Source: Thermodesulfobacteriota bacterium
GTDB lineage: Bacteria; Desulfobacterota_D; UBA1144; Nemesobacterales; CSP1-2
Reading direction: 5' to 3'
Length of the DNA: 64,000 nt
Assembly: GCA_035559815.1 (NCBI GenBank)
Contig: DATMAT010000057.1
Location: forward strand, 6,359 to 70,358
The notes under the pieces were generated by a model, which worked only from the letters and a program-made list of their open reading frames with translations, did no database searches and had not been told where the DNA came from. Positions 36,682-39,597 of this stretch are shown here, one piece after another. How positions within the stretch are numbered: the stretch's first letter is position 1; each line of letters begins with the position of its first letter. The position numbers and the translations under genes are program-made.

Positions 36682-36930
36682 TCAGAAACAGATCCAACGG
36701 CAGTATCCACCCCAATGAGGCAGGCACACCCGGACGCATGAGGGCTCCACAATAGGCCACCGAAGCAAGTCTGGCCTAAAGAACTGTGTATCTGTGAAGA
36801 GCAATTGCGCTGGATATATGGTTACGTTAGCTTGGTTCAGAAGAGTGATCATCTGGTAATGTTCACTTGTCTTATAGAGTGATACTTCTGCGGTGAATCC
36901 CGGCATCTTCATCTGGTTCATTTTATTCAT
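36682..36930 (-). CDS. Leader-family precursor protein, member 3 (82 aa from the internal start)
   Basis: The leader is MNKMNQMKMPGFTAEVSLYKTSEHYQ. The core is hydrophobic/aromatic with 4 Cys (SCVRVCLPHWGGYCRWICF). The ORF is open up to 37005 but the RBS-supported start is at 36930. Confidence 0.75.
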   Translation of the reverse strand: MNKMNQMKMPGFTAEVSLYKTSEHYQMITLLNQANVTIYPAQLLFTDTQFFRPDLLRWPIVEPSCVRVCLPHWGGYCRWICF

Positions 36931-37029
36931 CCCCACTTCAACAAAATTTTTTGACCTCACTTCCGCTAGGAGATATGTCGTTGCACTTAGTAAATCGTTT
37001 TTCACCCTCCTTAATCAGAGAGCGAAGAG

Positions 37030-37995
37030 TCAGACCGGGATACAACGCCCCGAATCGAAGAGGCAAGTCCAACCAGGTGGACAGCCACTGTTGCCACAAC
37101 ACGACCAACCCGGCGGAGCACACTTTGTGCCATTAGCACAGCAGGAGTGACCAGGCGGGCAGCAACCCCGCCCGCAACACACAGGAGCCCACGACGGACA
37201 GCAATGGTCGCCACAACACCGCTCACCAGATACGCAGCAGCGGTTGCCACAAGTCTGACCCGCCGGGCAACAACCACCGCCGGTGCATACTTCTCCTGGC
37301 CCACAGCAGTGATTGTTACAGACTCGACTAGGTGGACAGCAGCCCTCGATGGTGCACTGCTCTCCCGGAGCACAGCGACGGTTATTGCAGACTCGATCTG
37401 CAGGAGCACAGCCGTCCAGGGTGCACACTTCTTCCGGCGCACAACAACGCTCGTTGCAGACTCGATCTTTAGGGCAGAAGCCGTCCCTAGTGCACTGCTG
37501 CCCATCTGGCACATAACAACCGAAACCGAAGCAGCATCGTTGACCTGGCGGACAGCAGCTTAATGTATATCCGGTTGCCGTTTCATTAAGGATGTGGCAG
37601 CATTCATGGTCTCCCGGGCAACATTCCGGACGCTTTCCGATGCGCCCGCACAACTTCATTTCAGGTGGACAGAGAGGAGGAATGAACTCGCATTGGACCA
37701 AGCACTGTACTCTGCATTCATCACGCAGAATCGCGATTGGAACATCCGGATTATCAATGCGTCCAGCTTTGACGCAGGCACCTACGCAGCGATCAACACA
37801 GGGTTTTTTATGGCAATATTCCATGCACTGATGGTCAGGGTGGCCAGCCCTGAGGCAATCGTCCATACAACGATTCACACCGTTGTATGCCGGGTATATA
37901 GTCTCATTCACTTGGCTAGAAGTCCCAATAGTATAGTAGTGCCCGCTCGTTTTATAGAGTGACCCTTCTGCGGTAAATCCTGGTATCTTGTTCAT
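37030..37995 (-). CDS. Leader-family precursor protein, member 4: 321-aa extremely Cys-rich protein
   Basis: The leader is MNKIPGFTAEGSLYKTSGHYY. About 300 aa follow with more than 60 Cys in iterated C-x4-5-C / CCPPG / CAPxxxC units (...CCGPGEVCTGGGCCPAGQTCGNRCCVSGERCCGDHCC...). Confidence 0.8.
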   Translation of the reverse strand: MNKIPGFTAEGSLYKTSGHYYTIGTSSQVNETIYPAYNGVNRCMDDCLRAGHPDHQCMEYCHKKPCVDRCVGACVKAGRIDNPDVPIAILRDECRVQCLVQCEFIPPLCPPEMKLCGRIGKRPECCPGDHECCHILNETATGYTLSCCPPGQRCCFGFGCYVPDGQQCTRDGFCPKDRVCNERCCAPEEVCTLDGCAPADRVCNNRRCAPGEQCTIEGCCPPSRVCNNHCCGPGEVCTGGGCCPAGQTCGNRCCVSGERCCGDHCCPSWAPVCCGRGCCPPGHSCCANGTKCAPPGWSCCGNSGCPPGWTCLFDSGRCIPV

Positions 37996-38064
37996 TTAAT
38001 TCGCCCCTAATTTCAATCATAATATGTCGTGCCTAATCACGGCCTTCACCCGGGTGCATAAGGT

Positions 38065-38403
38065 CTAAGTTCGAGTAGGGCTGCATCCTTTGAGGCATTC
38101 TCGATAATTCTCATCGCAGATAATACAGTGGGTAGATCCCTTCGGGTTTTCAGGCGTGCCTTCACAACCCTCCAAACACAGGACCCAGGCTATATAGCAA
38201 AGACCTCTACAAAGCGAACGCCCGATCCCGCCAAAAAGCCCAGAACCGGGCGATACAGGTAATGGATTAATAGTCAGTTGAGAAATAACTCTTTGCCCAC
38301 AGTTGCTATAAGCTTGCATCGCTATAGACTGGTACTGCTCACTCGTCTTATAAACCGATGCCTCTGCTGTGAATCCCGGTGTTTTCATTTCATCAACCCC
38401 CAT
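38065..38403 (-). CDS. Leader-family precursor protein, member 5
   Basis: The leader is M(GVDE)MKTPGFTAEASVYKTSEQYQ. The core has 10 Cys (...SLCRGLCYIAWVLCLEGCEG...HCIICDENYRECLKGC). Confidence 0.75.
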   Translation of the reverse strand: MGVDEMKTPGFTAEASVYKTSEQYQSIAMQAYSNCGQRVISQLTINPLPVSPGSGLFGGIGRSLCRGLCYIAWVLCLEGCEGTPENPKGSTHCIICDENYRECLKGCSPTRT

Positions 38404-38441
38404 TTATTTCAGATTATCCCTACAGCAGCCGACCTAAACCC

Positions 38442-38693
38442 TTAGGCCATTCCCCCGCCACCACAGACCCCAAAGCACGCACCGCACGTCAAAAAATCTC
38501 CTGGGTCTGGCACAGGCGACATAACAAGGAAAGCCGCACAGGCTAGGCAAGCGGTCATGCAAAACCTGCTTCTGAACATCGCCGGAACGATCCCACTTTC
38601 TTTCATATCCGAACTATAAGAAACCGTATATCGTCCAGTAGACCTGTATACAGAGGTTTCTGCAGTAAATCCAGGCAAATTCATTTTACTCAT
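38442..38693 (-). CDS. Leader-family precursor protein, member 6 (83 aa from the internal start)
   Basis: The leader is MSKMNLPGFTAETSVYRSTGRYT. The core is hydrophobic with 7 Cys and ends GGGGMA. The RBS GGAGGTGAATAAA precedes the ATG at 38693. The longer ORF to 38768 would overlap member 7. Confidence 0.75.
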   Translation of the reverse strand: MSKMNLPGFTAETSVYRSTGRYTVSYSSDMKESGIVPAMFRSRFCMTACLACAAFLVMSPVPDPGDFLTCGACFGVCGGGGMA

Positions 38694-38748
38694 TTTATTC
38701 ACCTCCTTCACACATTGTTCAAAACCGAGATGAGTGCAGTAATCGGTC

Positions 38749-39135
38749 TTACCAGCCGAACCCGACACCTAGCTCGGTGTCGCAGGTCGTATCTGGCACG
38801 TCCCATTCACCCCAAATATTAAACCAAGTGTTTTTACACCGGTCTGGAGGCCGACCTTCAAGACCCGGAGTCGTTCGACAAGCTTCTTCCCACGATACGC
38901 CCCAAGGGATACCCCACAATATGGCTGAAAACTGTCGCCGTCCGCAGCCTGACCCTTCCGTCCACCAACAGCCGCGCTTAGTACAGTGATCTCTCTTGAA
39001 GCTACCCCAGGTCTGGGCCGGCACAAGGCGTCCCATTTCCGTCGGCATGTACTGAAAACCCGCTCGATACTGATGGCTCCCGCGATATAGCGAAGCCTTT
39101 GCGGTAAATCCAGGTATTTTGTTCATTTCATTCAC
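38749..39135 (-). CDS. Leader-family precursor protein, member 7 (Trp-rich core)
   Basis: The leader is M(NEM)NKIPGFTAKASLYRGSHQYR. The core has 11 Trp and 6 Cys (...RGCWWTEGSGCGRRQFSAILWGIPWGVSWEEAC...). Confidence 0.75.
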   Translation of the reverse strand: MNEMNKIPGFTAKASLYRGSHQYRAGFQYMPTEMGRLVPAQTWGSFKRDHCTKRGCWWTEGSGCGRRQFSAILWGIPWGVSWEEACRTTPGLEGRPPDRCKNTWFNIWGEWDVPDTTCDTELGVGFGW

Positions 39136-39177
39136 CTCCTTTTTTCACTCCCTCACCAGACCCTAGAGACCGAACAC

Positions 39178-39597
39178 TCAGATCAGGGTGCAGAAAGAAG
39201 GACTACATCCTATGAAGGGTGCACATATTCTCCTGCACTTTGTCCCCGCCGGACAACAGCCCTCGTTATTACAGCAGGACGTACCGGGCGGGCAACAACC
39301 ACGAGCACAGCAAGGATGACCAGGGGGACAAGAGTGGGTGCCGCAGTTGGGTCGAGGTGGAGGAGGTGGGGGTGGAGTACAAGATACTTCTTTACAAATA
39401 GGTCCTCCTGTTTCTGGGTCATATCCAAAGCAACAGGTCTTCTGCCCATTTTCACATGGCGTGCACCCTTTAATCTGTTGTAGTACTAAGCCGCTAACTG
39501 ACTTGCTAGTCCAAGTCGATTCAAGCGCATAAATCCCAGCCGTCCTGTAGAGCGAAGCCTCTGCGGCAAATCCCGGCATTTTGCTCATTTGACTCAC
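39178..39597 (-). CDS. Leader-family precursor protein, member 8 (20-Cys core with a poly-Pro linker)
   Basis: The leader is M(SQ)MSKMPGFAAEASLYRTAGIY. The core is ...CTPPPPPPPRPNCGTHSCPPGHPCCARGCCPPGTSCCNNEGCCPAGTKC... The RBS is GGAGGTGAGTCAA. Confidence 0.8.
   Translation of the reverse strand: MSQMSKMPGFAAEASLYRTAGIYALESTWTSKSVSGLVLQQIKGCTPCENGQKTCCFGYDPETGGPICKEVSCTPPPPPPPRPNCGTHSCPPGHPCCARGCCPPGTSCCNNEGCCPAGTKCRRICAPFIGCSPSFCTLI

Follow-up and report, generated by a model that had tools for sequence, protein, structure and literature searches.

A conserved leader peptide on nine precursor genes next to a PatA-type protease module in a Thermodesulfobacteriota bacterium

Leader-bearing genes and maturation genes at the locus

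We analysed a 64,000-nucleotide stretch of contig DATMAT010000057.1 (positions 6,359 to 70,358 of the forward strand; assembly GCA_035559815.1) from a Thermodesulfobacteriota bacterium, hereafter called the window, in which nine small open reading frames (ORFs) share an N-terminal leader peptide and carry largely different cores behind it. A hidden Markov model (HMM) of 20 leader residues, built from the homologues of other genomes and run on the six-frame translation of the window, matched exactly nine ORFs at E ≤ 2e-5, and the next match had an E value of about 1. All nine leaders are encoded on the minus strand and start at 40026, 39588, 39126, 38693, 38388, 37995, 36921 (or 36930), 34094 and 33536, and the motif common to them is M-x-(M/I/L)-P-G-F-T-A-E-x-S-(L/V)-Y-(K/R)-(T/S)-x-x-x-Y. 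The initial annotation had likewise counted nine leaders; the range given there, 36930-39597, holds six of them. Seven of the precursor genes, each with its own ribosome-binding site (RBS), follow an S8 protease gene, a gene for a small protein and a gene for a PatG_D/PatG_C protein, which lie upstream on the same strand in this order. The main features are as follows, with lengths in amino acids (aa); DUF stands for domain of unknown function.

41599-42510, minus strand: S8a, PatA-type subtilisin-like protease, 303 aa; probable start ATG 42495; Peptidase_S8 E 2.5e-27
41200-41427, minus strand: small conserved CGGC protein; ORF of 75 codons, about 72 aa from the probable ATG 41418, containing YRVRLPGFISDEEIGLGDAIKRVTSTIGIKPCGGCERRASTLNGWLVF
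40062-41057, minus strand: stand-alone PatG_D + PatG_C (cyanobactin DUF) protein; ORF of 331 aa; probable ATG 41006; PatG_D E 1.4e-32, PatG_C E 5.5e-35
39658-40026, minus strand: precursor p40026, 122 aa; leader MKLPEFTAEVSLYKSAMSY; junction LVLTQ; 85-aa core with 6 Cys; leader HMM E 1.3e-7
39178-39588, minus strand: precursor p39588, 136 aa; leader MSKMPGFAAEASLYRTAGIY; junction LVLQQ; 98-aa core with 20 Cys in CCPPG-type repeats
38749-39126, minus strand: precursor p39126, 125 aa; leader MNKIPGFTAKASLYRGSHQY; junction LVPAQ; 87-aa Trp-rich core with 6 Cys
38442-38693, minus strand: precursor p38699, 83 aa; leader MSKMNLPGFTAETSVYRSTGRY; junction IVPA; 45-aa core with 6 Cys
38065-38388, minus strand: precursor p38403, 107 aa; leader MKTPGFTAEASVYKTSEQY; junction VISQ; 70-aa core with 8 Cys
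37030-37995, minus strand: precursor p37995, 321 aa; leader MNKIPGFTAEGSLYKTSGHY; junction IYPA; 285-aa core with 58 Cys
36682-36930, minus strand: precursor p36921; leader MNQMKMPGFTAEVSLYKTSEHY; junction IYPAQ; 40-aa core with 4 Cys
33621-34094, minus strand: precursor p34094, 157 aa; degenerate leader MNKVPGFKAEASLGRQIKRY; junction VLPQQ; 115-aa core resembling phospholipase A2 (PLA2), with 10 Cys; leader HMM E 1.9e-5
33180-33536, minus strand: precursor p33536, 118 aa; leader MRISTLPGFTAEVSLYKTRGYY; junction VVSPQ; 79-aa core with 8 Cys

The leader consists of two parts, a motif of about 20 residues and a variable spacer of about 15 residues that ends in a hydrophobic residue followed by x-P-(Q/A), with the consensus [VI]-x-P-[Q/A]. 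This junction is a second conserved element, additional to the motif that had been noticed in the initial annotation. In the window it reads IYPAQ, IYPA, IVPA, LVPAQ, VLPQQ or VVSPQ, and in a weaker form LVLQQ, LVLTQ or VISQ. Leader and spacer are free of cysteine in eight of the nine precursors, and the cores, which range from 40 to 285 aa, all contain an even number of cysteines (6, 20, 6, 6, 8, 58, 4, 10 and 8). The nine leaders, when read directly and not with a dedicated signal-peptide predictor, are polar in composition (T, S, E, K, Y, G), with no run of hydrophobic residues, and by eye none of them shows the charged n-region and the h-region of 10-15 residues of a Sec or Tat signal. The NCBIfam scan of eight precursors (all except p36921) gave nothing at E ≤ 0.1, the NHLP/Nif11 and cyanobactin precursor models included.

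Similarity between the cores of the window is confined to p37995 and p39588, which have the CC-x-PG repeat in common. The units of the p37995 core are CC-x-PG-x-x-C, in the form of C-C-x-P-G-x-x-C-C or R-V-C-N-x-R-C-C-A-P-G-E-x-C-T, and no Pfam or NCBIfam model matched this protein. Homologues of its repeats stand behind the same leader at other loci (L013, L069, L072 and L120; cyanobacterial, Brocadia and Methylococcales genomes), and the repeat domain of p39588 is common to p37995 and to leader-bearing genes of cyanobacterial and Brocadia genomes. The p37995 repeats are also reminiscent of granulin-like or Myxococcus Cys-rich repeats. As for the other precursors, p40026 is preceded by the RBS GGAGGTG, the leader of p39126 has K at the usual E position of the motif, and p36921 has its first ATG at 36930 and an RBS-spaced ATG at 36921, from which the protein would be 79 aa long. 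Two database proteins of a Thermodesulfobacteriota metagenome-assembled genome (MAG) are identical to proteins of the window; one of them (P0001, VNN20_14335) is identical to p38699 and the other is VNN20_14295.

The core of p34094 is classed as PLA2-like on its sequence motifs only. Its signature, YCGPG ... CREHDLCY ... CQCD, contains the PLA2 features of a Ca-binding loop (YxGxG), a catalytic His-Asp motif (CxxHDxCY) and CxCD, and the residues G49, C52, G53, H76, C79, Y80, C90 and D91 are invariant in 38 homologues. The Pfam model PF08398 scored 24.4 bits (cutoff 23.9) and PF00068 scored 28.1 bits (cutoff 32.1). In the AlphaFold2 (AF2) model of the precursor, residues 1-42 are disordered and the fold starts from residue 43, right after VLPQQ, with the predicted local distance difference test (pLDDT) score above 90 at 60-150; the Foldseek search of this model against the PDB gave no match at E < 0.1 and no PLA2 structure. 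Like secreted PLA2 zymogens, p34094 combines the Ca-loop YCGxG, CxxHDxCY, CxCD and 10 Cys with a presumably removable N-terminal extension before the catalytic domain. However, this extension is a generic PGFTAE-type leader and not a short propeptide that is cleaved by trypsin and preceded by a signal peptide. Of the 120 database clusters listed, about 19 have the leader + PLA2 architecture. Many of the PLA2-like homologues P0143-P0237 (e.g., those from Rubrobacter MAGs) carry a Lys-rich N-terminus (M-x-K-P-K-K-E-A-K-R ... E-I-S-x-P-V-x-S-E-L-A-K) in place of the PGFTAE leader, while the junction I-T-P-Q-Q-L-S-L-P-V-Y-G is unchanged. The Lys-rich N-terminus may represent a second leader type for the PLA2-like cargo.

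Among the three maturation proteins, the protease is the only recognisable enzyme. S8a has the triad motifs LIDGPV, HGTFVAG and GTSAAAP, and it lacks a signal peptide, a prodomain and a fused DUF. Its best PDB matches were PagA (4H6W, 8.9e-31) and PatA (3ZXX/4H6V), with residues 4-260 aligned including the catalytic D, H and S, whereas the PatG/PagG macrocyclases were matched at 1e-14 and aligned only from the catalytic His onward. Because the alignment is full-length with PagA/PatA and partial with PatG/PagG, we consider S8a to be a PatA-type and not a macrocyclase-type protease. The DUF protein matched the PatG DUF (PDB 4UVQ) at E 9.5e-6. With TIGR03895, the model of full-length PatA/PatG, the S8 protein scored 113.5 bits and the DUF protein 38.4 bits, the cutoff being 421.

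The small protein lies between the S8 and DUF genes also on unrelated contigs. Its homologues form 1,937 clusters (E ≤ 1e-3), all of about 70 aa, and no Pfam domain or NCBIfam model was found for it; among the best 120 of the 1,937 clusters, identity to the window copy is 60-90%. In the alignment of 49 sequences, L-P-G-F, both cysteines of C-G-G-C and L-N-x-W are invariant, and the two glycines are at least 90% conserved. The stretch L-P-G-F-(I/V)-x-(D/E) echoes the (M/I/L)-P-G-F-T-A-E of the leader. Rare variants occur on both sides (PRF and PEF in leaders, LPRF and LPAF in small proteins), but they are too few for gauging covariation. The AF2 model is composed of strand-helix-helix-strand with CGGC at a helix N-cap (mean pLDDT 77), and Foldseek found no significant PDB match for it. 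None of the top 120 homologues is fused to the S8 or the DUF protein; the overlap seen on rhizobial plasmids is a separate unannotated ORF, not a fusion. Homologues of the small protein were also located at 8572-8781 of locus L001 and at 5453-5668 of locus L006. The small protein may mimic the leader, serve as a gate, or be a partner for redox or metal functions.

The DUF protein begins with a disordered tail (40820-41006; window copy ILPTQAGGGGCPTC) that contains ILPTQ-AGGGG-CPTC. A CxC or CxxC pair is present in the tails of 45 of 49 homologues (shuffled mean 4.4), and in 27 of the 49 tails φ-x-P-Q (φ, a hydrophobic residue) stands 2-6 residues ahead of this pair (shuffled mean 6.0). The tail thus looks like a precursor junction followed by cysteines, i.e., like a substrate-like element. 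Both S8a and S8b, the second S8 protein described below, have a CPDC motif shortly past the catalytic His, and CPxC was found in 28 of 32 S8 homologues; PatA and PagA have a single Cys at the aligned position. The occurrence of a Cys pair in all three maturation proteins suggests that the S8 protein, the small protein and the DUF protein might share a metal or redox site.

Two further features were noted on the minus strand.

34119-34925, minus strand: S8b, a diverged second S8 protein, 268 aa; Peptidase_S8 E 9.6e-26
42684-42713, minus strand: promoter-like site TTGACT-18-TATAAT upstream of S8a; 11 of 12 consensus positions

S8b is 71% identical to S8a at the amino-acid level, with a third-position identity of 0.485, and it still heads the precursors p34094 and p33536. 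At the C-terminus its reading frame is joined to the final 13 codons of a PatG_C gene (...LLWSEFP followed by FLVTKMSPYYDR; fusion stretch 34119-34187). The join lies at GAGTTTCCG, which is common to the S8b and DUF genes, whereas S8a has GAGTTCCCA. As judged from this join, S8b is an in-frame deletion remnant of a second module from which the gene for the small protein and the greater part of the DUF gene are gone. Promoter-like sites in the region were not above the shuffled expectation, and the site upstream of S8a is a positional hint only.

Selection on leaders and cores

The initial annotation had compared three 48-nt strings from the leaders starting at 37995, 39126 and 39588 and had concluded from their mostly third-position differences that the leader is kept by selection on the peptide and is not a recently copied DNA repeat. 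The three strings are exact reverse-strand reads from these positions, and 20 of the 36 differences among them are indeed at third positions. The conclusion was borne out when all nine copies were analysed over a block of 19 ungapped codons. Identity at codon positions 1, 2 and 3 was 0.71, 0.71 and 0.37, and the pooled Nei-Gojobori proportions of synonymous (pS) and nonsynonymous (pN) differences were 0.78 and 0.29; pS is saturated and the Jukes-Cantor dS is undefined. The longest exact DNA run between any two precursor genes is 16 nt and is located at the RBS and start. The saturation of synonymous sites and the lack of long shared DNA runs exclude recent duplication, gene conversion and a nucleotide-level element. 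Thus, the leader is maintained by peptide-level selection and not by recent DNA copying. Copies with the same amino acid had an identical codon in 43.4% of pairs, compared with the 35.0% expected from random synonymous draws from the codon usage of the window itself (P = 0.006), and most of this excess came from two columns, Gly GGA and Ala GCA. The nucleotide and amino-acid identities of the leaders are nearly equal (0.60 vs 0.57), which the initial annotation would have taken as a sign of recent duplication; at such divergence this equality is not diagnostic, and it is the contrast between pS and pN, not the comparison of overall identities, that is the valid test of copying.

The paralogous cores of the window cannot be aligned with one another, and the ratio of nonsynonymous to synonymous substitution rates (dN/dS) in leader and core was therefore taken from orthologues. 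Between p36921 and its orthologue at L033 (an Acidobacteriota MAG), dN/dS was 0.05 in the leader and 0.12 in the core, and the whole post-leader part of p36921 is 82% identical to the L033 gene. Between p38403 and the orthologues at L062 and L056 (Verrucomicrobiae and Acidobacteriota MAGs), to both of which it is 49% identical, dN/dS was at most 0.09 in the leader and 0.20-0.24 in the core. The representative library contains P0241, a near-identical orthologue of p39126 with 125 aa. The sample searched was limited, and within it recognisable homologues in distant taxa turned up for six of the nine cores of the window. The initial annotation had also claimed that the cores turn over while the leader is maintained, and this part did not hold: the cross-phylum orthologues together with the core dN/dS of 0.12-0.24, which reflects purifying selection, indicate that the cores are not turning over. 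A better picture is that of one portable leader attached to many separate, old and individually conserved cargo families.

The leader family and its partner genes in other genomes

The profile search of databases was made with an alignment of the 50 N-terminal residues. The leader profile matched 1,483 clusters at 90% identity (E ≤ 1; 5.8 billion proteins) and, in an exhaustive HMMER scan, 1,569 representatives at 50% identity (E ≤ 1e-3). Nearly all of the members are 60-200 aa long, have no Pfam domain and are named "hypothetical" or not named at all. The giant repeat proteins P0246 and P0281 were rejected as members, since their matches were spurious sums over 'PGFTGTASV'-like or VWD-type repeats. 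Judged by record titles and among the matches listed, the leader occurs in Acidobacteriota, Nitrosospira, Nitrosomonas, Nitrosovibrio, Methylococcales, the cyanobacteria Calothrix and Aulosira, and Brocadia, and further in Nitrospira, Nitrospinota, Verrucomicrobia, Chloroflexota, Alphaproteobacteria, Actinomycetota, Spirochaetia, Dadabacteria and Rokubacteria; the archaeal loci are from Methanoperedens and Methanophagales. The same motif in about 1,500 protein clusters and more than 10 phyla agrees with the earlier view that the leader is ancient. No Pfam or NCBIfam model was found for the leader family, PADLOC gave generic subtilase matches only and no known defence system, and a full-text literature search returned no describing paper, although a description elsewhere is possible. 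Our view of the family as new is based on this absence of a Pfam, NCBIfam or PADLOC model and on the negative full-text search.

Motif frequencies in 203 genome-derived members were 1.00 for P, 0.94 for G, 1.00 for F, 0.95 for T, 1.00 for A, 0.90 for E, 0.97 for S and 0.87 for Y. Among 398 unique members, V or I stands at position -2 from the junction Pro in 87%, and the median core is 43 aa long. The leader is distinct from the core, as is characteristic of RiPPs, peptides that are synthesised ribosomally and then modified post-translationally: the frequency of Cys is 0.3% before the junction and 12.4% after it, the junction is conserved, and disorder gives way to fold at this boundary. In these 398 members even core Cys counts dominate (six in 96, four in 83, eight in 48, ten in 25 and two in 24) and odd counts are rare, a pattern that is the signature of what we predict to be fully disulfide-paired mini-proteins. 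A conserved C-terminal follower was not found; at the last six positions of the precursors no residue exceeds 16%.

The DNA pattern back-translated from P-G-F-T-A-E-x-S-x-Y hit at least 120 genomic stretches, and 120 loci of 8 kb were analysed. They contain 211 leader ORFs, one to five per locus. At least one of the genes for S8, the small protein and PatG_D/C is present in 89 of the 120 loci and all three are present in 53. All-against-all clustering of the ORFs revealed only four conserved families, namely the precursor, S8, the small protein and the DUF protein; no transporter or secretion, YcaO or prenyltransferase family was conserved in these loci. The gene order S8, ~70-aa protein, PatG_D/C and precursor(s) repeats on independent metagenome contigs. 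The module was also found on RefSeq plasmids of Sinorhizobium mexicanum (pEmeITTGR7b) and Streptomyces sp. NBC_01568, where S8 has a generic name, the DUF protein is 'hypothetical' and the small protein is 'hypothetical' (Streptomyces) or uncalled (Sinorhizobium). The precursors of both plasmids, which lie downstream of the trio (L127 7053-7700 in S. mexicanum and L128 5257-5620 in Streptomyces sp. NBC_01568), are uncalled. The precursor family is systematically under-called.

Directly upstream of the module lie an F420/LLM-class oxidoreductase-like gene (42754-43695, minus strand) and a radical SAM gene (43976-44869, minus strand, 297 aa), both with NCBIfam matches below the cutoff. They were considered as modifying enzymes and rejected as core parts of the module, since neither family shows conservation across the 120 loci. 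Both probably neighbour the module without being related to it. Four small ORFs (35269-36539, minus strand) separate the two groups of precursors. One of them (36246-36539) matches the AF2212-like family (E 6.5e-12), which we take to be an antitoxin family, and 35269-36539 looks like an inserted toxin-antitoxin-type cassette. Farther away, a 941-aa TPR + CHAT (caspase-like) protein (24567-27392, plus strand) is followed by a gene pair without Pfam matches (27547-28946) that looks like a sigma/anti-sigma pair, with a CxxC zinc-finger-like N-terminus and a region-4-like C-terminus. Neither a tRNA nor a compositional anomaly was found at the flanks of the cluster.

A putative maturation pathway and its alternatives

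We consider it probable, at roughly 0.65, that the nine ORFs are paralogues from a large uncurated family whose members are made by the ribosome as precursor proteins and matured by the S8/CGGC/DUF module. The precursors would be transcribed behind the three genes for the PatA-type S8 protease, the 72-aa CGGC protein and the stand-alone PatG_D/PatG_C protein. The invariant leader motif would dock any cargo onto the module, the protease would cut at or beside the [VI]-x-P-[Q/A] junction, and disulfide-rich peptides or proteins, probably toxins or antimicrobials, would be released. On this reading purifying selection keeps the leader peptide near-constant because a single protease set has to recognise every cargo; its synonymous sites have meanwhile been randomised. 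The initial annotation had called the leader a recognition element, which is plausible in view of the PatA-type module at 89 of the 120 loci, an association from which we infer the role itself. PatA-like proteases remove leaders at the N-terminus, cutting after G(L/V)E(A/P)S (PMC10885120). A cut at the proposed junction would likewise have Ala or Pro at P2.

Several observations weigh against the proposed maturation. None of the three maturation genes was found within 8 kb in 31 of the 120 leader loci. A strict P-[Q/A] junction is missing from about 22% of the family (88 of 398 members) and from four of the nine window copies (LVLTQ, LVLQQ, VISQ and VVSPQ). Moreover, ITPQQL is retained in PLA2-like proteins without the PGFTAE leader, so this junction may partly belong to the cargo itself or may be the site of another protease. 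The PatG DUF did not bind the precursor PatE in vitro (PMC4259220). Finally, the clustering of the 120 loci revealed no exporter and the precursors have no signal peptide, although the cargo looks disulfide-bonded and hence extracytoplasmic. To our knowledge, cyanobactin clusters likewise lack a dedicated exporter.

Arrays in which one conserved leader directs many diverse cores to one enzyme are known from prochlorosins and other Nif11/NHLP-leader precursors. The locus resembles them in its paralogous precursor array with a conserved leader and unrelated cores, which fits one machinery acting on many substrates. It differs in that no NHLP/Nif11 NCBIfam model matched, a linked lanthionine synthetase or other modifying enzyme is missing, as are a double-glycine site and a C39 transporter, and the cores are conserved across phyla instead of being hypervariable. 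We therefore rejected a double-glycine (C39/ABC) or NHLP/Nif11 leader, given the [VI]-x-P-[Q/A] junction and the lack of a conserved transporter and of an NCBIfam match. In conotoxins a conserved pre/pro region, which includes a eukaryotic ER (endoplasmic reticulum) signal, precedes a Cys-rich mature toxin that evolves at an accelerated rate. The precursors studied here similarly have a conserved N-terminal region, presumably removed, before diverse even-Cys peptides; however, their leader is not a signal peptide and their cores are under purifying selection.

A broader version of the maturation reading, which we put forward only tentatively, is that the leader and the trio constitute a general unrecognised pro-protein maturation pathway of more than 10 bacterial phyla and some archaea that yields mini-proteins and toxins rich in disulfides, with gating by mimicry and a shared CxxC centre. 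One leader would then license cargoes from 40-aa knottin-like peptides to whole enzymes such as the PLA2-like protein. The L-P-G-F-(I/V)-x-(D/E) stretch of the small protein and the φ-x-P-Q-...-CxxC of the DUF tail would be built-in mimics of leader and substrate that gate the protease, and the S8 CPxC, the small-protein CGGC and the CxxC of the DUF tail would form a shared metal or redox centre for oxidative folding.

Alternatively, the leader could be an export or targeting signal for a non-Sec route, with S8 trimming it afterwards or being unrelated. The even Cys counts and the PLA2-like cargo, which point outside the cytoplasm in proteins that carry no Sec or Tat signal peptide, would be accounted for in this way, and so would the leader loci without nearby maturation genes. 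Nevertheless, we regard export as unlikely: the leader is polar and predicted to be disordered, no transporter or secretion gene is conserved beside it in the 120 loci, and its conserved partners are limited to the small protein, the DUF protein and an S8 protease of cytoplasmic type that lacks a signal peptide. Somewhat less likely still is that the leader stays on the product as a functional part of a toxin family, serving as an intramolecular inhibitor or as an oligomerisation or membrane-interaction tag. Since cleavage is deduced and the motif is as strongly conserved as an active-site element, this has some appeal; the sharp boundary between a Cys-free disordered leader and the cargo, the mutually unrelated folds of the cargoes and the tight linkage to a PatA-type leader protease argue against it.

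The relation to cyanobactin processing needs to be considered separately. S8a is closest to the PatA/PagA protease domains and the DUF protein to the PatG DUF, with both PatG_D and PatG_C present, and a conventional cyanobactin-type RiPP cluster with heterocyclised and/or N-to-C macrocyclised cores could be envisaged from this similarity. However, here the protease and the DUF are separate genes with that of the 72-aa CGGC protein between them, and this split repeats on other contigs. The only protease type is that of PatA, without a PatG macrocyclase; YcaO and prenyltransferase genes are lacking here and none is conserved nearby in the 120 loci. The leader is unrelated to PatE, the precursors match no cyanobactin precursor model and have no conserved C-terminal recognition sequence, and both TIGR03895 scores (113 and 38 bits) fall far short of the cutoff of 421. 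The Cys-rich cores of 40-285 aa are also far larger than the cassettes of 6-20 residues in cyanobactins, and most of the leader family is found outside cyanobacteria. The conventional cyanobactin cluster is therefore largely refuted and appears highly improbable. Least tenable of all, to the point of being practically dismissed, is a recent DNA repeat, gene conversion or an element that acts at the nucleotide level (RNA or translation control), for which the slight excess of shared GGA Gly and GCA Ala codons and the similar RBS/start context GGAGGTGAATGAAATG could be cited, but which is countered by third positions only 37% identical, the high pS, the short longest run of 16 nt and the same peptide motif written in different codons in more than 10 phyla.

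The system of leader-bearing precursors is probably a variant of the leader/protease precursor theme that represents an unannotated and phylogenetically broad route of precursor maturation. The leader itself emerges as an old tag maintained by selection, and the idea of fast-evolving cores is corrected. If the maturation reading is true, a widespread and compact four-part system (a precursor and three genes) for disulfide-rich products has been missed by current annotation. The cyanobactin DUF has had no known role since its structure became available in 2014 (PMC4259220); the module would offer a functional handle on it and, on the broader reading, its first functional context. Members occur in cultivable Nitrosospira, Nitrosomonas and Methylobacter, on rhizobial and Streptomyces plasmids, and in cyanobacteria, Acidobacteriota and anammox bacteria, which makes the proposal directly testable. 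The approximately 1,500 clusters would then constitute a large untapped library of knottin-like and toxin-like scaffolds, and the module might supply a promiscuous leader-dependent protease for biotechnology, as PatA and PatG have served.

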